A stretch of 64,000 bases of DNA from Methanotrichaceae archaeon. Its GTDB lineage: Archaea; Halobacteriota; Methanosarcinia; Methanotrichales; Methanotrichaceae. The position numbers were made by a program, and so were the translations under genes. Below, piece after piece: positions 40,989 to 51,152 of the stretch. The notes under the pieces are model-generated. The model had not been told where the DNA came from. It did not search any database and worked only from the letters and a program-made list of their open reading frames with translations. Position 1 is the first letter of the stretch. The number at the start of each line of letters is the position of its first letter. The stretch spans positions 167,366 through 231,365 of the forward strand of contig CAVVKN010000002.1 of NCBI GenBank assembly GCA_963748825.1. The letters are read 5' to 3'.

Positions 40989-41411
40989 CTAGAGCTCTTT
41001 GCCAAGCGATGTTGTAGTCAATTTGACATGCTTCACACCCTTCAGGGACATCATCTTCTCAGCCGCTTTTCTCACATCCTGCCCCTCGCCCCTCAGCACT
41101 ACGACCTCCAGACAATTGTCGTGATCCAAATGGACGTGCAGACTGGACTGAATTAAGCCGCCAAATTCATGCTGAATCTCAGTGAGATTATCTTCCAGGC
41201 CCCTTTGAGAATGGGAGTAAACAATGGTAATCACGCCAACGCGTTCCCCGTGGACGTCGCTCATCCATTCGAAGTTGACTATATAGCTTCTAATGGCATC
41301 CCTGACCCCCTCGGAGCGAGAAGAATAGCCTCGCTGAAGAATTATCTCGTCAAACTTATTAAGCAGATTTTCCGGCAGGGAAATGCCTACTCTCATTAAT
41401 TCTTGGTCCAT
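40989..41411 (-). CDS. nikR: Nickel-responsive regulator NikR
   Basis: RHH RVGISLP..GYSSRSE; Ni site QH...[12 protein letters not shown]. Confidence 0.96.
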
Positions 41412-41707
41412 ATGTTATCGTGTAATATAGTTAAATGTTACTTAGTAATAAGCTTATTGGATGCATCAGCAGAAAGACTGATTACATAGGCAAAGCATGA
41501 CCATCTTTCTTGGAGTTGATTTATCAATGCAAAACGTCATTAATGCATCGTTATTTCGCGTCGTTAATTGCCCCCATGTCAATTACGAGTATTACTATAA
41601 AAATTAAAATTACGTATTTATTTTATGATTAAATCATATGAAAATAAAAAAGCTACAAATTTAATATAACAATTAGCGCTAATAGTAGCAAAAAAGGTAG
41701 GTGCATT

Positions 41708-42594
41708 ATGAGACGTGGTTTATATCAGTTCATATCTGCGCTGCTCCTTTCCATACTGATTTTAGGCATATCGGGCCAGGGTGGGGAGGATTCCAGCGGG
41801 AAGATTCTAAAGATCGGCACGCCCAATGTGGTGAAGTCTGCCAGCATTCTGGGAGACACTATGAGGTCTCAGAAGATGGGAAGGTCTGGAAGTTCACCAT
41901 CAATGACGACCTGTACTGGAGCGACGGCCCAAAGCTGACGCCGAATGATGTGCGGTTTACCTTTAGCTATCTAGCAGAAAATTACCCAGCGGCAGGCTGG
42001 ATGAAGAAGACTGTGGACAATATTTCTGTGGAAGACGGCGCGGTGGTCTTCAAGCTGAATAAGCCCTACTCCCGGCTTAACCTGGAGAGGCCCTCCTCGG
42101 GGCGGGTTTTCTTTGCGGGAGAGGATATCTGGCGTTTGCGAGGCAGGGAGTTTTTGGCTTTCAGAAGGCGAGTGCAGATGGTCTTCCAGGATCCTGAGGG
42201 CTCTTTGAATCCCAGGAAAAGCATTGAACGGTCTATTCATGAGGTTTTGGGCCTGCTGAAAATTCCCCAAAGAGAATGGCTGAAGAGGACAGGGGAGATT
42301 TTAGAGATGGTAGGCCTGTCCGAGGAGCTGCTCTGCCGCTATCCTGCCCAGATATCGGGAGGGCAATGCCAGAGAGTGGCACTGGGCAGAGTCTTGCTCC
42401 TCCACCCTAGGGTTATAATCCTGGATGAGCCCACCTCCGCCCTGGATATCTCGGTGCAGGCTCAGATCCTGAATCTCCTCAAGGATCTGCAGAAAGATAT
42501 GGGTCTGGCCTATCTGCTTATCTCTCATCAGCCTGAGGTGATCAGGTTCATGGCTCATGAAACGATCGTTCTTGAGAGTGGAGGGATCTCTTGA
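41708..42594 (+). pseudogene. Deletion chimera of a Nik/Opp-type ABC operon: binding-protein 5' part fused to ATPase 3' part
   Basis: Signal peptide ORF at 41708, frameshift to family-5 SBP motif SEDGKVWKF..WSDG..LT..DVRFT, fused at NLE/RPSSG to QMVFQDP..ISGGQ..LDEPT; no Walker A, no permeases. Confidence 0.85.
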
Positions 42595-42708: not shown

Positions 42709-43692
42709 CTATCCGGGAAATTGCGCCTTGGCTGGTACCGTGAAGCAAGTGCAATCGAAGATGCCCCTGGCGGACTTAAAGGCCTTTGCATCAGCATAAT
42801 TCAGGTCGCTAAATCCGCCAGAGCAACAGGGCAGCCATGAATCTTCTTTCTCCTCCTCCTCTGAGTAGGTGTAAAGATTCATATTTTTCTTAATGTGGAA
42901 GTTCCCCACGTAATCCTCATCCAGCTCTATCAAAGGCTTTTTCCAGGCTTTCATTGCCAGGCCGAGGACTTGAACCTCCTCCGAGTCTTCTTCCGGCTCT
43001 TCATCTACAGGGATTCCCTGAAGCTGAAGCACTCCAAAGTGTGCCCGACCATCAACCAAGTCCTCTTCTATGTTCATTGTGTTATTTGTTGCATCTGATT
43101 GAGCATCAAGCACCTTATTCAATCCATGAGCATGATCAACCATGTGATGCAAGGAATTCAAACCATCGCGGTTCTTTATCCAATCTTCTTCTTTCAGCAG
43201 GGAATTGAAAGCGATTGGATGCAGATCGTAATATCGTGATCCTATACCCATTACCAATGGGCTGTAAGTCATCTTGCTGTCTTCTTTCATCTGAATAGAG
43301 CTTGTTGCTTCTTCTTCATCCTCTATTTCCTCTCCATCTTCATCGTAAGCGCCGTTGATCCAGGTTTTATTGGAGTATGAACTTTCTGCATATATATTTG
43401 AATCAGTATCTATTTTTCCGCTGCCGTGAGCTTTGTTCTTCGCCTCAACTCCGTTGAACAGGTGTCCTTCTGTCCCAAGAGCTTCCGGCATTTGGGCATA
43501 TTTATAGGCAGTAAAGAAGCCAGTGCCGCTCACTTTCTGTTCAAAGTTGAATTTTAGATTTTTCTCTTCCAATGTCGTCGGATTGTCATATGCCGTATCA
43601 TTCTCCTGTAATTGCGTCTCCATTTCCTCATTATCGGCTGCGGCCATGCCAATTAGCGCAAAGAGAGCCAGCAATAAAATAATCTCTCTCAG
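42709..43692 (-). CDS. Secreted acidic protein of unknown function with WLPCC...FDCTC motif
   Basis: Paralog of 38346-39332; probable CTG start at 43692 after GAGGAGG giving signal peptide (M)REIILLLALFALIGMAAA. Confidence 0.82.
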   Translation of the reverse strand: MREIILLLALFALIGMAAADNEEMETQLQENDTAYDNPTTLEEKNLKFNFEQKVSGTGFFTAYKYAQMPEALGTEGHLFNGVEAKNKAHGSGKIDTDSNIYAESSYSNKTWINGAYDEDGEEIEDEEEATSSIQMKEDSKMTYSPLVMGIGSRYYDLHPIAFNSLLKEEDWIKNRDGLNSLHHMVDHAHGLNKVLDAQSDATNNTMNIEEDLVDGRAHFGVLQLQGIPVDEEPEEDSEEVQVLGLAMKAWKKPLIELDEDYVGNFHIKKNMNLYTYSEEEEKEDSWLPCCSGGFSDLNYADAKAFKSARGIFDCTCFTVPAKAQFPG

Positions 43693-44136
43693 ATCATTCC
43701 CTCCTCAAATACGATGTCTACGTTAACACGTATTTATCATATTATTTTAAGATATCTGCTAATAATTGTATAATGTAGCATGATAGCATAACTATCGGTT
43801 TTGTGTATTAATAGAAGATACAAAAATCGCATAAACTATTGAAAAGTCATATGTTGATCCGGTTGATGATAAATCGTGCATATATGCGCTGCATGCGCCA
43901 AAGATTTCCGTGGTGCTCGCGCACTATACCTCAGCACGAGATTCTACTCTGGCCCATGATTTGCTCGCATGCTAAGTGTGCTAGATGAGACGCACTTCAA
44001 GAATTTGGACTTGCCAAGATAGTCTTACCATAATTTGCTTACTCGGTATGCGCATAAAAATCAAGGATAATTGTTACTTAATATGATCCAAGATAGTCTT
44101 TTATAATTGAAAGGCATTTTGGTCAACGGTGAGACT

Positions 44137-44856
44137 ATGCATATTCCTGATGGCTATCTAGGGCCATACACTTATATCGCAATGTGGATCATAATGATCC
44201 CCATCTGGTATTATGCGGGAAGGAAGCTCAGCTCTGAGCTGAAGTCGAGGCAGGTTCCCCTGCTGGCGCTGGCAGCAGCGTTCTCTTTTGTCATCATGAT
44301 GTTCAATGTGCCAATTCCTGGAGGCAGCACCGGCCATGCCGTGGGCGCTGCAATAATTGGCATCGTCCTCGGTCCTTGGGCCGCTGTGATTGCCATATCC
44401 GTTGCCCTCGTGTTGCAGGCGCTGATGTTCGGCGACGGAGGCATCACGGCTATCGCAGCCAATTGCTTTAATATGGGTGTAGTGATGCCCTTTGTTGCCT
44501 ATTATGCGTATAAGCTCATCAGTGGAGGCACAGAAATTACTTCTTCGAGGAGGGTCATTGCTGCGGCCATCGCCGGCTACATCTCTCTCGTGATAGCATC
44601 TGCCTTTACAGGATTTGAATTCGGTATTCAGCCTATATTGCATCACACAGCTGAAGGAGTACCACTCTACATGCCCTACCCACTGAGTGTGACGGTTCCT
44701 GCCATGGTACTGGAGCATGCTTTCGGATTCGGCATCCTTGAGGCTCTCATTACGGCACTGATCTTTGCCTACATCCAGAGAACGGATACCTCTCTGTTTT
44801 ATGGAGAGAAATCTGCTGCGCAGAAGATGAAAATGAGGAAAGCAACCACATCGTGA
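44137..44856 (+). CDS. nikM: ECF-type Ni/Co transporter substrate component NikM/CbiM
   Basis: N-terminal MHIPDGYL metal-binding motif, GSTGH, QALMFGDGG. Confidence 0.92.
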   Translation: MHIPDGYLGPYTYIAMWIIMIPIWYYAGRKLSSELKSRQVPLLALAAAFSFVIMMFNVPIPGGSTGHAVGAAIIGIVLGPWAAVIAISVALVLQALMFGDGGITAIAANCFNMGVVMPFVAYYAYKLISGGTEITSSRRVIAAAIAGYISLVIASAFTGFEFGIQPILHHTAEGVPLYMPYPLSVTVPAMVLEHAFGFGILEALITALIFAYIQRTDTSLFYGEKSAAQKMKMRKATTS

Positions 44857-44865
44857 GGCAAGACC

Positions 44866-45180
44866 ATGGATCAGATAATAAGAAACTTTGTCATTGGCCT
44901 GGTAGCGCTGATTATTCTGGCGCCGTTGGGGCTTTTAGCCGTTGGAGAGACCTTTGGCGAGTGGGGACCAGAGGAGGTTAAGGAAAAGCTTGGCTTTGTA
45001 CCACCTGGTTTGGAGCAGCTTTCATCGCTTTGGAGCGCACCCTTGCCTGATTACGCCCTGCCCGGGGGCGGCGATTCGATGACCACAGCAGCGGCTGCTT
45101 ATATCCTATCCGCAGTGATCGGCGTTATTGCCTGCGGTGGCCTGCTTTACTTCGTAGGCAAGAGAGTTGCCAAAGACTAA
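44866..45180 (+). CDS. NikN-like PDGLE-domain accessory membrane protein
   Basis: GEWG, PPGLE, APLPDY motifs; directly after nikM. Confidence 0.88.
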   Translation: MDQIIRNFVIGLVALIILAPLGLLAVGETFGEWGPEEVKEKLGFVPPGLEQLSSLWSAPLPDYALPGGGDSMTTAAAAYILSAVIGVIACGGLLYFVGKRVAKD

Positions 45181-45747
45181 CGGTTTTTTTTTCCAATTTT
45201 TAGCTACAAAACAATTGAGTCAAACGGCAGGGCTTCCTGCCCATTTATATCCAATATTTTTAATCGGGCAAAGATCAAAGGTTGCTACTATCAGGCCAAC
45301 AATCGCAATTCCGGTGTCGTTAGATCCTTTTCTGGTTGCATCCGCTGCAGAATATAGCGATTTATGCTGCATAGACATCCAACCTGGGAAAATTTAAGCA
45401 TTCAGGCGATCTCATGCGCGAGATATGACATCCTTCAAATTGCTGCGCGGCTGATCAAAAAAAAGGATCTATCCCGCCATTAAGCTAGGTTCTTCTCCAC
45501 CACGTTCTGTTCAAAGCCTCTTGGCTATTTAATTATCCTTCCTACTTATTTCGCTTCTTGTAGTACTTTTTATACTAAGAAAATAATTGAGATTAAAGAT
45601 TTATGCATCAATTACGAAATATTGCTACAAATGGGGCATAATTTTTTTAAATAAAGCGGCAGATATGCTGGAAAAAGCCCACAGAAAGAATTTAATAGCA
45701 GATCACTTAACTATATAATAATTACAAAAGAACGGAGGTGAATCTAA

Positions 45748-45864
45748 ATGTGTTGCCACGATGATAATAAGCACGAACACACACACGAGCACCCTGGAGA
45801 GAAGCACGTCCATGAGCACATCCACGATGCAGAGCACAAGCACGGACATAAGTGCTGCCATTAA
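45748..45864 (+). CDS. 38-aa His/Cys-rich putative metal-binding micropeptide
   Basis: MCCHDDNKHEHTHEHPGEKHVHEHIHDAEHKHGHKCCH; GGAGGTGA RBS just upstream; TATATAA near 45712; below the ORF-track cutoff. Confidence 0.85.
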   Translation: MCCHDDNKHEHTHEHPGEKHVHEHIHDAEHKHGHKCCH

Positions 45865-46025
45865 TGCTGAAATAATTTCCTGGAAATTTTGTTTTGAAGA
45901 GGAAACGCTGGCAGTTGATCCTTGGGCGAACAGCTAGGATCAATGCCAGGCTTCATTAATGGCATGGCTAAATCCATCTGGATTTGTCAATAAGCCTCGT
46001 TTTTTTCTTGTTCACCTTCTCCGGC

Positions 46026-46217
46026 TCAATAATAGATTTGGACCCTCCTAAGCGGATTATTCTTTCTATCTACTAAGAGGACTTCTTCCCCATCCTCAAT
46101 TCCCGGATCTGAATCTATCACTTGCCCCGAGAATAGCCTGCCTCCACGGGCAATGAAGGAAACCGCCGCATCTGAGACTACTACCTTGCTGGTTGATGAT
46201 TTATCTTCTTTGGACAT
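46026..46217 (-). CDS. Stand-alone PUA-domain small protein
   Basis: KVVVSDAAVSFIARGGRLFSGQVIDSDPGIEDGEEVLLVD matches the PUA pattern; AGGAG RBS. Confidence 0.78.
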   Translation of the reverse strand: MSKEDKSSTSKVVVSDAAVSFIARGGRLFSGQVIDSDPGIEDGEEVLLVDRKNNPLRRVQIYY

Positions 46218-46263
46218 GATGCACACTCCTGTTATGTTATTAATCTAATATTGATATTACTAA

Positions 46264-46288
46264 GTAATAAACTTATTGATAGTATTGC
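46264..46288. promoter_or_regulatory. Putative NikR-type operator
   Basis: GTAATA-N13-TATTGC over the probable promoter of the PUA gene. Confidence 0.4.
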
Positions 46289-46439
46289 TATTAGAATGGG
46301 CCCATGTTATATATGGAGCATCAATAAGCCACCTTGAGGATTATGAGATCTCTGAAGAAGATGACTCAAGCCCAAGAGTCTGAGTCAGGTCGATCCAACT
46401 ATGAGCTTTCGGACCAGGCAAGCGTTCCTTCGATTCAGG

Positions 46440-46600
46440 ATTAAGGATAGATGACCATTGTGCAAAGGAGCAAGCCTGACGCCTTAGATGGAGTGTATAG
46501 GATCGACCCGACGCGAGAACCTGGAGGCCAAATTGAGGTCGTGGATGGCCATAACTGCAGAGATCTTCTTTTCATGTACCATGTCCCTGACGATCTCAAA
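46440..46600 (-). pseudogene. Fragment of a FecE/BtuD-type ABC ATPase
   Basis: Reverse strand reads [29 protein letters not shown], near-identical to [21 protein letters not shown] in 60447-61235, then stops. Confidence 0.75.
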
Positions 46601-47603
46601 GATAGTCGTAGGATATCTGTTGCATCCGATACACAAAAAACAGCAGGTCGGGCATCACTACATGCCGTTAAGTCGTATCTCTTCTCCCACAATCAGCCCA
46701 TGGTCCGGCTTTGCCCGTATGCGGATATACTGATCCCCGCCGCGCACACCAATTGCGGGGATCTCCTCCCCCGCAGTGGCACACTCCAGTACCAGAAGGC
46801 TCTTCTCGTCTAAAGACCTCAGTCGCTGGCATCATAGCCAGCTCTGCTGAGAAATATAGCGGTTACCAGATCAAATCCTTTGTCGCAGCAGCTTTTTCTG
46901 ATATCTGTGATCATCAGCGAGGTCATAGCATTCCTGTTTCTATCTTTACGGTCTTCATTGTTTTTTCAGAAGAGGAGTCCGGCCTGGCAGTGGCCGGAGC
47001 CCGACAACAGGTAGACGACGGTAAAGGAGGTCAATGGCGTTCTGTCGCTATTTCTGGAATTTGGATATTACTAGTTAATAAGCATTTTGCTTTTCGTAGC
47101 AATTGAACCATTCAAGTGATGAAAACAGAATGACGAGATCAAGCTACGCGATAAAGAAAAATTTAGGGATACATTGGACAGCCTTGCCCACCCTTATCCC
47201 ACTGATGCTCTTGCAGCGGTATCTTTGCTACCATCTTGTATTATGCGAAGGGCAGCGCGATGGTGAATAGAACCAGGATGGACATAGGGTATATGTTCGT
47301 TCTCATTTTTTTAGGCTCTTTTTTCCCGGCAGGCATCAAGTGCTATCCGATCTTGAAAAATCCTGGATATTTCCGTCCTAGTATTATCAAACTTTCATAA
47401 AATGTTAGAATATATATAATCTATGCCTATTGGTAATACTAATAGATGAAATCATCTATATCAATAGCGTAGAAAATTACTCAAATGGAATTAACTTAAT
47501 TTCATATCTAGATGCAATATGGTATTAACTTACGCGCGCAAGTATTTAATACGTAACATCCTACATACGGAATAACGTTCAAGTTAATGGGAGCAATTTG
47601 ATC

Positions 47604-48047
47604 ATGAACCACGCAGCATCCGCATGTAAATACACAGGCATAGACAAGGATTATTCCATTGAGGACTTAGCGGCATTTCACGGCCACCTCGGCCCTTACA
47701 TCGTTCTGGGCTACAGGATGGGCAGATATGTCCGGCTGCATTTCTGCAGCGACCCCTTCCAGATGAAGGCCGCCGTCTACTGCGAGGGTGTACCCCCGCA
47801 AACGTGCCTGGCCGACGGCATACAGATCGGCAGCGGCTGTACGCTCGGCAAGAGGAACATCGAGATTGTTGCTTGCGATGAGATCCGCTGCGAGTTTGCC
47901 TTCGGCGAGAAAAAAATGGTCATCAGGCCCAGGCAAATCAATTTCCCGCCCCAGGGCAGCGACAATTACGGCCTGCTTATCGAGAAGCTGGCCGAGGATA
48001 TGTACAGCATGCCCGATGCGCAGCTCTTTGCTGTCGATACAAGCTAG
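47604..48047 (+). CDS. FmdE (formylmethanofuran dehydrogenase subunit E) family protein
   Basis: FHGHLGP..LG.R, CLADGIQ..GCTLGK. Confidence 0.9.
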   Translation: MNHAASACKYTGIDKDYSIEDLAAFHGHLGPYIVLGYRMGRYVRLHFCSDPFQMKAAVYCEGVPPQTCLADGIQIGSGCTLGKRNIEIVACDEIRCEFAFGEKKMVIRPRQINFPPQGSDNYGLLIEKLAEDMYSMPDAQLFAVDTS

Positions 48048-48064
48048 GGCTAAGGTGAGCGGCT

Positions 48065-48811
48065 TTGAACATCGTTGAGCTGAAGGGCATCTACACCGCT
48101 TACGAGGGGGGCGAGAAGGCCGTCATCAGGGACCTGTCGCTGCAAGTGGGCCGGGGCGAATACGTAGTCATCGGCGGACCCAATAGCGCCGGCAAGACCA
48201 CCCTCCTGGAGTCGATAAACGGCCTGATCAAGATCACGCACGGCAGTGCATCGGTCTGCGGTCTGGATGTATCTTCCCAGGCGGATGAGGTGAGACGGAG
48301 GGTGGGCTATGTCATACAGAATTTCTATTTCGATCCCTTCACGCCCTTCACTGTAGAGCAGGTGGTGATGATGGGACGTTTTGGCCGTTTGGGGCTTATG
48401 AACCGGCCGGCTAGAGAGGACTACGATGCCGCCCAGAGGGCCATAACTCTGGTCGGCATTGAGGATCTGGCCCACAAGACCATCGGCACGTGCAGCGGCG
48501 GCCAGCAGCAAAAAGCCATGATCGCCCACAACATCGCCAAGGAGCCGGAGGTTATGATGCTGGACGAGCCATTCAGCAATCTCGATTTTTATGCCAGAGA
48601 GTACTTGCAGGGCGTATTCAAAGAGATGGTGAGAAAAGGAGTTCCCATACTCATGGTTGCCCATGCCTTTGACGGGCTTCCCGACATTCCCATTCACCTG
48701 GTGGTCATGAACCAGGGCAAAATCAAATGCGACCGGAATTGCAGGGCGGAAGAAGTGGAAGACATCATCAGAAAAGAGTGCGGGGTGTCTGGAAAATGCT
48801 CGAGTGGCTGA
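48065..48811 (+). CDS. Metal ABC transporter ATP-binding protein (ZnuC-like)
   Basis: GPNSAGKT, TVEQVVMMGR, CSGGQQQ, LDEPF. Confidence 0.92.
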   Translation: MNIVELKGIYTAYEGGEKAVIRDLSLQVGRGEYVVIGGPNSAGKTTLLESINGLIKITHGSASVCGLDVSSQADEVRRRVGYVIQNFYFDPFTPFTVEQVVMMGRFGRLGLMNRPAREDYDAAQRAITLVGIEDLAHKTIGTCSGGQQQKAMIAHNIAKEPEVMMLDEPFSNLDFYAREYLQGVFKEMVRKGVPILMVAHAFDGLPDIPIHLVVMNQGKIKCDRNCRAEEVEDIIRKECGVSGKCSSG

Positions 48812-49626
48812 TAGAAAATAACGTAGTCTGCCATGCCCTCGAGGCCATGATCTTTGCTTCCATCGCCTGCAGCATCCTCGGCGTCATCATTTCCCGCATG
48901 AACCTTTCCTCAATTGGCTTTACCATGTCGCATGCTGCTTTTGCCGGGGCGGCCATGGGCATGTTCCTGGGAGCAAATGCCCAAATGGCGGCCATTGCCT
49001 TCAGCATGACAGTGGCGGCTCTGATTGGCCCCGTGAGCGACAAAGCCAAGATGGCTGCTGATGCGACTTTAGGTGTGCTCTTCGCCATGTCCATGGCGGT
49101 TGCCATTTTTTTAATCTCTTACATGGAGTACATGGGCAAAGGGCTTTCGGCGAGCGCCTTGCTCTTTGGAGATGTCATCTCGCTTTATAGGGAGGAGATT
49201 TACGCCCTGGCTGCGGTCTGCTGCCTTACCATCATCTTTGTTTTGGCATTTTACAAGGAGATCTCGGCCATCATGTTCAACATGAAGATCGCCGAAGCCG
49301 CCGGGGTTCGCGTCAAGCTCGTCTATTACATACTATTATTCATCATCGCCCTCTCCGTGGCACTCAGCCTAAATATTGTGGGAGGCCTGCTGATCTTCGT
49401 TCTGCTGGTTACGCCCGCATCCATAGCCGGCCAGTTCTGCTTCAATGTAAAGAGCATGTTCATTGTAGCGCCGGCCGTAGCCCTCTTCGTTAGCGCTTTT
49501 GGCGTCTGGGCCGGCTTTGAGTTCACGCTGCCGGTCGCGCCCCTGGTGGCCCTGCTGCTCACGGGGGTATTCGCATTGTCCGTAATGCTGTCCTTTAAAA
49601 GAAGGATAAATACCAAGATACATTGA
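48796..49626 (+). CDS. Metal ABC transporter permease (ABC-3, ZnuB-like)
   Basis: MSHAAFAG, LLFGDV, IVGGLL..LLVTP. Confidence 0.9.
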   Translation: MLEWLIENNVVCHALEAMIFASIACSILGVIISRMNLSSIGFTMSHAAFAGAAMGMFLGANAQMAAIAFSMTVAALIGPVSDKAKMAADATLGVLFAMSMAVAIFLISYMEYMGKGLSASALLFGDVISLYREEIYALAAVCCLTIIFVLAFYKEISAIMFNMKIAEAAGVRVKLVYYILLFIIALSVALSLNIVGGLLIFVLLVTPASIAGQFCFNVKSMFIVAPAVALFVSAFGVWAGFEFTLPVAPLVALLLTGVFALSVMLSFKRRINTKIH

Positions 49627-50054
49627 ATTTCTCGGCGGTGGTTATGATCAAAGATAGACGTAAAATGCATAATATGGTTTGCCGGCGGCCAGCAGATAAG
49701 GGATTTATGTGCATCGGCCCATTTCGGCAGCCATGACCTTTTTAACTTAATATCGATTCCCTGGGGCCCGGCATGCGCTACTCTGGTTGCCTATCCGGCA
49801 GGCATGGCAGGAAATGCTCCCTTATCTCAGATATTCATCGGTCCAATCGATCCTTCCGCCATGGGTTGGCTGCCCGAAAACTGCCTGGCCATAGGAATCC
49901 CGGTAGAAATCGCCAGGAAGATGGCTGGTGATGCAGAGAGGTCGTTCCTGTCCAGAGATAGATGATGTTTCATAACATAGCTGCCCTTCTTCCTGATGCT
50001 CATCCCTGCTTTCTTTATATTAAATATGAATTCATAAAGATTATTAAGTTATTA

Positions 50055-50079
50055 GTAGTAAAACTTAAATATTTAGTAT
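50055..50079. promoter_or_regulatory. Putative NikR-type operator overlapping a TATA-like box
   Basis: GTAGTA-N13-TAGTAT with TTAAATA inside, 15 nt upstream of ATG 50095. Confidence 0.45.
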
Positions 50080-50094
50080 TACTAATTGCAATTT

Positions 50095-50976
50095 ATGAAA
50101 GGAATTCAATCATCCAACTTAGTCATACTGATGCTGGCAATCTTCCTGATCGTTCCTGCTTGTGCGGAAACAGCACCGGCAACTCTCAAGATTGTCTGCA
50201 CCACCAGTGTATTGATGGACCCGGCAACCTACATCGGCGGCGATAGAGTGGAGGCCATTTCCATCGCCGACCCTACCCTGTGCCCGCATCTGCAGACAGA
50301 CATCATTCCGAACCGCATCCAGCTCAATATGGACTTCATCAAGAACGCTAATATGTTCGTGGCATATAACGACAGCAACGACCAAAAGTATAACATGCCT
50401 GCAGTTAATGATTTTATGAAAGCTAACAACTACAAAGCTTTTGAATGGAATACCGTTTCCAACCCATCTCGCGGATGGAACACCCCGACCAACTCCAAGA
50501 TGCTGGCCGCCGAGGTAGAGGGATGGCTGGCAAAGTTAGACCCGGCCAACAAGACCTACTACGAGCAGCGCTACAATGATTATGCAAAGAGCTTTGATGC
50601 CATCGGGCCCACTGAGGCGGAGAAAAAGCAGCTCAACCAGACCCAGGTCATAGTTATGCTCTGGCAAAAAGAGCCAGTGCAAAACTGGCTGGGCATGAAA
50701 GTGGTTAACTTCTTCGCTCCCGAGTTTGCCATGAATGGAACCAAGACGGCTGCCAAGATCGTGGACGACATCAATGCCAACCCCGGCAAATACCAGAACG
50801 TCACCTACGTCATCGAGAATATGCAGTCGGGAGAGCTGGCCAAGGGCATTGAAGAGTCACTAAAGGACAAGGGCATCAATGCCACGCGCGTCATCTTCAC
50901 CAACTTCCCGGGATCGGTTCCGGGAGCGGATACCATGGCAGAGGTGCTGAGCCACAACAAGCAGCTGGTGCTCTAG
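50095..50976 (+). CDS. Metal ABC substrate-binding protein (ZnuA/TroA-like, atypical ligands)
   Basis: Signal peptide, KIVCTTSVL..IGGDRV, DPTLCPH, LDPANKTYY. Confidence 0.85.
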   Translation: MKGIQSSNLVILMLAIFLIVPACAETAPATLKIVCTTSVLMDPATYIGGDRVEAISIADPTLCPHLQTDIIPNRIQLNMDFIKNANMFVAYNDSNDQKYNMPAVNDFMKANNYKAFEWNTVSNPSRGWNTPTNSKMLAAEVEGWLAKLDPANKTYYEQRYNDYAKSFDAIGPTEAEKKQLNQTQVIVMLWQKEPVQNWLGMKVVNFFAPEFAMNGTKTAAKIVDDINANPGKYQNVTYVIENMQSGELAKGIEESLKDKGINATRVIFTNFPGSVPGADTMAEVLSHNKQLVL

Positions 50977-51152
50977 GCGGCCTGTAAACTTCAGTCCGAT
51001 AAAGGCAGGTTTTCTGCTTTTCCTTTTTCTGAGGTTTAAAAGCTTCAGCAAATCTGCTAATGATATAATATATTCACGTCCATGTTTTTTGCTACCTAAA
51101 CCAAAAAGTTTATTACTAAATAATACGATGTTCAAGAAAATAGAGGTGGGGT

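Follow-up and report, generated by a model that had tools for sequence, protein, structure and literature searches.

The 64,000-nucleotide stretch of Methanotrichaceae DNA analysed here (the window, from the genome called G000 below) carries, at positions 45748 to 45864 of the forward strand, a short open reading frame (ORF) that is a genuine protein-coding gene under purifying selection. Its 38-residue product, MCCHDDNKHEHTHEHPGEKHVHEHIHDAEHKHGHKCCH, contains 13 His (34%) and 4 Cys, the latter as two CC pairs, with a CCH at each end, exactly as a preliminary description of the stretch had read it. With moderate confidence we favour the reading that this peptide acts in the cytoplasm as a disordered Ni(II) buffer or hand-over protein with several binding sites, one that would work like the Helicobacter protein Hpn while having an independent origin. 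The nickel link, a contextual one, is stronger than the preliminary description saw, because the peptide gene recurs beside nikMNQO, NikR, DUF4198 and cfbC-cfbB genes, and because the peptide shares its His register with the importer ATPase NikO.

A conserved micro-gene overlooked by annotation

The gene and the signals assigned to it are the following.

45748..45864, + strand: peptide coding sequence with its stop codon (ATG at 45748, TAA at 45862-45864)
45734..45741, + strand: Shine-Dalgarno sequence GGAGGTGA, with a spacer of 6 nt to the ATG
45691..45698, + strand: TATA-like box TTTAATAG, with a conserved GAAAGA before the box; the block is kept in an alignment of 22 loci
45908..45949, + strand: 3' stem-loop CTGGCAGTTGATCCT...AGGATCAATGCCAG, from per-sequence folding
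46000..46009, + strand: T-run TTTTTTTCTT; T-runs also lie 3' of the hairpin in several relatives

An in-frame TAA (45745-45747) abuts the ATG. The Shine-Dalgarno sequence at 45734-45741 and the box at 45691-45698 are the perfect ribosome-binding site (RBS) and the upstream TATA-like element that the preliminary description had reported, and the distance that it had put at about 570 bp after nikMN measures 567 nt from the end of the PDGLE ORF.

Frame, neighbourhood and selection counts were made over 46 loci, each with up to 5 kb of flank on either side. The frame is intact in all of them, with ATG as the start codon in 44 and TTG in 2. Their products, 41 distinct peptides, have lengths of 38 (33 loci), 41 (nine), 39 (three) or 37 (one) residues, and TAA, TGA and TAG are all in use at the same stop position. 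The perfect 8-mer GGAGGTGA is present in 43 of the 46, with a spacer of 5-7 nt, and a 7-mer in two more; genome-wide the 8-mer occurs 106 times, against 91 expected from composition. Residues M1, C2, H4, H9, H13, G17, H20, H22, E23, H26, H30, H32, H34, C36, C37 and H38 do not vary between loci, and at C3, H11, H15 and H24 conservation is 90% or more. Across 1035 pairs, the proportions of synonymous (pS) and non-synonymous (pN) differences in the sense frame are 0.878 and 0.149, giving a pN/pS of 0.170, while the same-register antisense frame gives 1.318 and contains stops in five loci. Third codon positions vary in all 36 ungapped columns, first and second positions in 18 and 18. The contrast is equally visible at short range, where a strain about 96% identical differs at 15 sites in the 98 nt ahead of the RBS (45633-45730) and at two, both synonymous, in the ORF; at longer range the peptide is kept in genus g12 (G364 and G304), whose amino-acid sequences are 63-66% identical to that of the window. 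Relatives thus keep the CCH ends and vary synonymously, which bears out the check proposed in the preliminary description.

Composition says less. Among the 55,014 stop-to-stop frames of at least 30 residues in the genome, no other 38-residue segment is as rich in His as the peptide, yet four random genome frames still reach 12 His, so the argument from chance is weak and it is conservation that carries the gene call.

In profile searches a match was obtained in 38 of 59 genomes of the genus (20 of 30 of high quality) and in 54 of 105 genomes of the family (34 of 64 of high quality), spread over 7 of 16 genera; among the weakest of the family matches, a few are partial and one is interrupted by a stop. 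The 388 genomes from other families of the phylum gave no full-length match and one weak partial one (E 0.0024). Judged by the source names that homologues of the neighbouring genes carry, the DNA comes from Methanothrix/Methanosaeta in the family Methanotrichaceae. The gene is also largely unannotated. None of six exact peptide sequences was found in a collection of 15 billion proteins, and a 17-peptide profile searched against 1.84 billion representatives returned six clusters, all of them MCCH...CCH peptides and several with over-extended N-termini. This is a clear case of a functional micro-gene overlooked by standard annotation.

The TATA-like box, the RBS and the 3' hairpin are together consistent with a short monocistronic mRNA. 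From the position of the box, transcription would start about 25-30 nt before the ATG; the 3' stem-loop is likely the end or a stabiliser of the message, and the T-run at 46000-46009 may serve as an archaeal terminator. In 24 of the 46 loci the 150 nt 3' of the stop hold a stem-loop of -20 kcal/mol or lower, a count made without a shuffled-sequence control. The stem sequences vary by clade (e.g. G017, G062, G072a and G364), and RNAalifold recovered four outer pairs only from the poorly aligned 3' region, so sequences were folded one by one. A scan for sigma-70-type promoters and terminators is uninformative for an archaeon, and Rfam (E <= 1, positions 43000-48000) returned two chance-level eukaryotic families only and no known riboswitch. 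One metatranscriptome contig is identical to 45733-45882, with adapter directly before 45733 and the rest of 45200-46300 uncovered, which is a weak hint of expression.

A peptide built of putative metal ligands

The peptide consists of MCCH, four residues, HxHxHxH, four residues including the invariant Gly, HxHxHxH, three residues, HxHxH, one residue and CCH. The window peptide ends in KCCH, and nine loci append two further residues, the last of them His. At the other end MCCH is found in 45 of the 46 loci and MCGH in one. Removal of Met before a small residue is the usual rule, and a peptide without Met1 would present NH2-Cys-Cys-His, an amino-terminal Cu(II)/Ni(II) (ATCUN)-type motif with two extra thiolates. 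The ATCUN motif has the form NH2-X-X-His, with a classical site of four nitrogen ligands (4N); the processed peptide would share the His at position 3, while its thiolates at positions 1 and 2 would alter the classical 4N coordination.

No Pfam (E <= 0.01) or NCBIfam family matched the peptide, a sequence search of the PDB (E <= 10) found no relative, and the ESM Atlas returned unnamed clusters only, with scores below 0.9. AlphaFold2, run with the family alignment, gave a mean predicted local distance difference test score (pLDDT) of 50.7, a predicted template-modelling score (pTM) of 0.18 and no secondary structure. According to this model the peptide without ligand is probably disordered, which is what one would expect if metal induced its folding.

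The importer ATPase NikO carries the same His register

Weak matches of the first search, located in frames of 311-326 residues, proved to be the ATPase of the nikM-nikN-nikQ-nikO operon. The last ~30 residues of NikO, e.g. HEHMHIHGKAVHEHLHAHGKEHAHQH (pattern HEHxHxHGKxVHEHLHxH...), lie outside all Pfam domain matches. When peptide residues 9-34 are set against NikO residues 249-274 with no gap, 13 of 26 positions are identical and all 11 His are in register. The register common to both is HxHxHxH, four residues, HxHxHxH, three residues, HxHxH, and within the genome this His module is limited to the peptide and the nikN-type importer ATPase.

The tail is present in 10 of the 10 PDGLE-type operons examined and in the full operon on contig C22 of the window genome; the ATPases of G063 (CbiN-type) and G009 lack it. 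Tailed ATPases are encoded at C22:155464-156291 in G000, at L034:2871-3698 and in nine other loci. The tail also occurs in four peptide-less genomes, G059, G074, G045 and G168 (genus g10), and G364 (genus g12), which has the peptide, showed no tailed ATPase among its matches at E <= 1e-40. In protein databases the tail is found in 53 clusters, the named ones being Methanothrix/Methanosaeta 'cobalt/nickel transport ATP-binding proteins'.

Tail and peptide are alike in His spacing and in lineage, and the gene for the tailed ATPase often precedes the peptide gene by about 1.3 kb in the same orientation. They differ in that the tail is the end of a 276-residue ATPase and has no Cys caps, whereas the peptide is free-standing, with what appear to be its own promoter and RBS. 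As a design the likeness looks striking; as homology it is not established, and the pairwise BLASTP E value of 5e-07 comes from a single comparison of low-complexity sequence.

Nickel genes recur around the peptide gene

A transition-metal gene is clearly nearby in 28 of the 46 loci, and six other loci, which have Opp/Nik-type ABC components or an FmdE-fusion gene only, were left out of this count. The underlying Pfam scan took in 315 of 330 greedily chosen flanking ORFs of at least 100 residues; the 15 outside it are six of L061, one of L059 and eight in the window, where genes had already been identified. The arrangement seen most often runs CbiM, PDGLE, CbiQ, ATPase, orfX, peptide, all on one strand. 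With three CbiM genes in the 2.88 Mb of G000, about 1% of random 10-kb segments would be expected to contain one. The metal genes are distributed as follows.

CbiM and/or CbiQ in the flank, 16 of 46 loci: G000, G049, G016, G061, G004, G042a, G063, G053, G020, G013, G017, G015, G072a, G041, G068a and G009
Energy-coupling factor (ECF) ATPase alone kept, two loci: G001a and G010b
NikR nearby: G000 (4.3 kb) and G008 (0.8 kb)
DUF4198 gene: next downstream in G023 and G009, 3.6 kb off in G017
cfbC, cfbB and a PNPOx-like gene immediately before the peptide gene and in its orientation: G055 (L059:2110-4743), with the same Pfam layout in G043 (L058)
cfbC-cfbB layout presumed solely from parallel ORF lengths: G073
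fmdE and/or ZnuC/B/A-type genes, seven loci: G000, G015, G013, G062, G060, G019 and G064
ZIP and cation diffusion facilitator (CDF) genes on either side of the peptide gene: G072c
CDF gene after a CbiN-type cbiMNQO operon: G063

We take DUF4198 to be a NikK/CbiK-like periplasmic family. In G055, where cfbC and cfbB, a gene for a 134-residue PNPOx-like flavoprotein and the peptide gene follow one another on one strand, the NCBIfam models score 411 bits for CfbC (cut-off 402) and 649 bits for CfbB (cut-off 560). As for the importers, the sections of one comparative study that deal with their components (PMC2667541) assign CbiN to cobalt systems and NikN or NikK/L to nickel systems, and describe NikMN1QO and NikMN2QO in archaea. 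The N component found here is a PDGLE protein and not CbiN (PF02553), and can be read as NikN.

The gene that we call orfX encodes 122-123 residues and precedes the peptide gene by 510-790 nt, in the same orientation, in 13 of the 46 loci (e.g. L034:4113-4478). Its invariant residues are C31, H112, H113, C115 and C118. A further copy in G000 stands outside the window, at C2:128098-128466. The family comprises 111 clusters, all 'hypothetical' and lineage-specific; AlphaFold2 predicts an alpha/beta fold (pLDDT 85.8), for which Foldseek gave no match at E <= 0.001 and the best VIA Z, 3.9, is within noise. As an obligate partner of the peptide orfX was rejected, since genus g10 has orfX in 7 of 7 and the peptide in 0 of 7 genomes, and genus g12 has them in 0 of 16 and 8 of 16, respectively. 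A complex prediction for the two proteins scored 0.00, which bears neither way.

The locus in the window

The genes of interest around the peptide gene in the window are these.

44137-44856, + strand: nikM (CbiM family), starting at the methionine of MHIPDG (NF008873, 361 bits against a cut-off of 225)
44866-45180, + strand: nikN-like PDGLE gene, the last gene before the peptide gene in the nikMN pair
40989..41411, - strand: nikR (RHH_1 and NikR_C domains), 4.3 kb upstream of the peptide gene
47598..50976, + strand: fmdE-like gene followed by ZnuC-, ZnuB- (ABC-3) and ZnuA-like genes, a candidate metal transporter

The nikM-nikN pair of the window has no Q and O genes with it, and the same truncated layout, nikMN and then the peptide gene, is found in G013, G015 and G042a. 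G000 holds a full nikMNQO on another contig (C22:153459-156279) and a separate CbiN-type cbiMNQO at C3:77067-79588.

Some further features of the window were recorded. Upstream of nikM, the direct repeat CCAAGATAGTCTT occurs twice, at ~44013-44025 and ~44088-44100, 75 nt apart. In the ORF at 41701-42594 (+ strand), beside nikR, part of a family-5 solute-binding protein is fused to the C-terminal half of an ABC ATPase, as if a large deletion had left a scar in an operon of the nikABCDE/opp type. Convergent with the peptide gene is a 66-residue ORF made of a PUA domain only (46026-46226, - strand); of the first 18 loci, 11 gave a tblastn match to it next to the peptide gene, in convergent orientation in 10. 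The palindrome TAGATGA-AA-TCATCTA at ~47443-47458, which precedes the fmdE-znuCBA-type operon by about 140 nt, may be the operator of another metal regulator.

Conserved upstream blocks and a candidate NikR box

About 500 nt of upstream sequence accompany the peptide gene whatever precedes them, with short invariant blocks kept.

45281..45633, + strand: conserved non-coding blocks GTTGCTAC, GCAATTC, TTTATGC, TCATGCGCGAG, TTTATGCA and TTGCTACAAAT

The blocks include an imperfect inverted repeat, AATTGC-N19/20-GCAATT. Within 600 nt upstream the sole recurrent small ORF is limited to one clade and broken in the window; RNAalifold found no consensus RNA structure in 45257-45497, Rfam no family in the conserved blocks, and each of two composite paired-block patterns occurs once in the genome, with no second copy.

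A separate 18-nt palindromic box (TTACT-N-AGTAA within TWAGTAATAARCTTATTG) has four sites in the genome at no more than one mismatch.

41442-41459: before nikR
46261-46278: before the 66-residue PUA ORF
51102-51119: before a response-regulator ORF (minus strand)
C24:29808: fourth site, on another contig

The boxes stand 35-50 nt before nikR, the PUA ORF and the response-regulator ORF, and in 11 loci the nikM promoter has a related block next to its TATA box. The box is a candidate NikR operator.

A proposed nickel buffer and its rivals

From the gene's anatomy, its neighbourhoods and the NikO likeness we infer the following scheme. The small gene would be transcribed on its own, from the TATA-like box to the 3' hairpin, and translated from its strong Shine-Dalgarno sequence. 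The product would stay in the cytoplasm, disordered without metal, and bind several metal ions, with the three HxHxH(xH) blocks and the two terminal Cys-Cys-His clamps as likely ligands; removal of Met1 would turn the first clamp into the ATCUN motif. The physiological metal is most likely Ni(II). The peptide would act just inside the NikMNQO importer, whose NikO carries the His tail of the same spacing, where it would buffer incoming nickel and pass it towards the synthesis of coenzyme F430 and the maturation of carbon monoxide dehydrogenase/acetyl-CoA synthase (CODH/ACS). A bolder version of this scheme, which we regard as doubtful, would have the peptide gene born from a copy of the NikO tail that gained a promoter, a strong RBS and two Cys-Cys-His caps, its product being a mobile nickel escort that picks up metal on the inner side of NikMNQO and delivers it to the F430 chelatase and the ATPases of CODH/ACS maturation.

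Several findings weigh against the nickel buffer. The gene is absent from 51 of 105 genomes of the family (30 of 64 of high quality), so about half of the family does without it and it is dispensable. No metal gene lies in the flank of eight loci (three of them on contigs of 4.7 kb or less), four loci are ambiguous, and because the loci are related by descent the neighbourhood counts overstate their independence. Operons of the fmdE/ZnuCBA type, which belong to the Zn/Mn/Fe class, adjoin the peptide gene in seven loci; in G072c it sits between ZIP and CDF genes, and in G063 it precedes a CbiN-type (cobalt) operon plus CDF. The palindromic box, itself only a candidate operator, is found upstream of the peptide gene at no more than one mismatch in 1 of 46 loci, against 1.7 expected. 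The RNA contig may represent duplicates of one fragment or DNA carry-over. For the proposed origin in particular, hhalign gives a probability of 19% for homology of peptide and tail, and the tails stay below threshold in profile searches.

Part of this evidence speaks for the main rival, a serious one that we nevertheless consider unlikely, in which the peptide is a zinc or broad-spectrum buffer or detoxifier with a metallothionein-like role, taking up whichever of Zn, Co, Cd, Cu(I) or Ni is in excess, with no particular tie to nickel enzymes. The seven fmdE/ZnuC/ZnuB/ZnuA-type neighbourhoods (in G062 the order is fmdE-znuCBA-peptide, on one strand), the ZIP and CDF genes of G072c, the CDF gene of G063 and the failure to find the candidate NikR-type box at the peptide promoter would all fit such a role, as would the ligands, for sets of His, Cys, Asp and Glu of the kind seen in the peptide are by established chemistry not metal-specific. 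What tells in favour of nickel is that the peptide gene neighbours a Ni/Co ECF importer more often than anything else (16-18 of 46 loci), that the F430-synthesis genes cfbC-cfbB lie directly upstream in two to three loci, and that the sole other protein of the genome with the His register is the nikN-type importer ATPase. Bacterial metallothioneins of the SmtA/BmtA type do resemble the peptide in their small size, Cys/His ligands and metal sequestering (the last predicted for the peptide), but the latter has 4 Cys to 13 His, no metallothionein-type cluster, no Pfam match and no predicted Cys-cluster or zinc-finger fold.

The shared register can be turned to another use, with the peptide a regulator of the importer and not a store: loaded with Ni, it would mimic the NikO tail and, through NikMNQO or a sensor, throttle uptake, or else it would vie with the tail for incoming metal. 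We think this improbable. In many loci the peptide gene does follow nikMNQO in the same orientation, and the four tail-bearing, peptide-less genomes checked make the peptide an add-on to a tailed importer. Yet G364, the sole g12 genome checked, has the peptide with no tailed NikO among its matches at E <= 1e-40, the gene also occurs far from any importer, for instance beside cfb genes, and an interaction of peptide and importer is purely hypothetical.

Far less probable still is a secreted or modified 'nickelophore' precursor, akin to ribosomally synthesised and post-translationally modified peptides, that would be exported, loaded with metal and taken back through Nik/Opp-type or ECF transporters. 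Its small size, the Cys and His at both termini and the Opp/Nik-type ABC components near 10 of the 46 loci would suit such a product. The peptide has no signal or leader peptide, however, and is conserved from end to end and not as leader plus core; among 315 neighbouring ORFs no modifying enzyme, protease or exporter recurs, only transport genes and orfX do, and radical-SAM genes are near two loci only, at 2-3 kb.

Finally, that there is no gene for the peptide at all, the ORF being a chance frame, the reverse of a hydrophobic peptide on the opposite strand or a His-codon attenuation leader, can practically be dismissed: frames with 12 His do arise by chance and the same-register antisense frame, a hydrophobic 38-mer, is open in 41 of 46 loci, but it evolves with a pN/pS of 1.32 against 0.17 for the sense frame and has stops in the other five, RBS and start are conserved on the + strand only, and there is no common same-strand gene downstream to control, the neighbour being convergent in many loci. 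A leader of the his-operon type was rejected on its own account, as other conserved residues alternate with the His, the Cys caps are likewise kept and the next gene is convergent or locus-dependent.

A proposed analogue of Hpn in methanogens

The nickel buffer that we favour has its closest counterpart in Hpn, which the relevant sections of PMC4671568 describe as a small, His-rich, lineage-restricted protein with -CC- motifs, whose monomers each hold about 5 Ni and which supplies the pathway of a nickel enzyme. The archaeal peptide and its gastric Helicobacter counterparts, Hpn and Hpn-2, are alike in being very small, cytoplasmic (by prediction for the peptide) and extremely His-rich, with -CC- near a terminus, and in being stand-alone genes of one lineage in organisms with a high nickel demand. 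They differ in layout, the peptide having alternating HxH blocks and a CCH cap at both ends where Hpn has poly-His runs, and in length, 38-41 residues in the archaea against about 60 in Hpn; no candidate NikR-type site was found at the peptide promoter. The preliminary description had called the peptide Hpn-like, which holds for its size, His content and -CC- motifs and does not extend to descent, as the profile search of 1.84 billion proteins returned the archaeal peptide family only. On sequence grounds the peptide is not a homologue of Hpn, and its proposed role would make it an analogue.

Literature searches, with supplements outside their scope, turned up no archaeal Hpn counterpart and no such methanogen peptide. 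Acetoclastic methanogens of the Methanothrix type yield a large share of biogenic methane, and they need nickel for methyl-coenzyme M reductase, through its cofactor F430, and for CODH/ACS; we know of no account of how nickel is buffered and routed inside their cells. If the peptide did originate from the NikO tail and serve as an escort, methanogens would have in it their first described metallochaperone or store dedicated to nickel. An easily synthesised, conserved peptide and the matching tail of an importer ATPase are two concrete objects for study, and the peptide offers a testable handle on nickel handling in a major lineage of methanogens.

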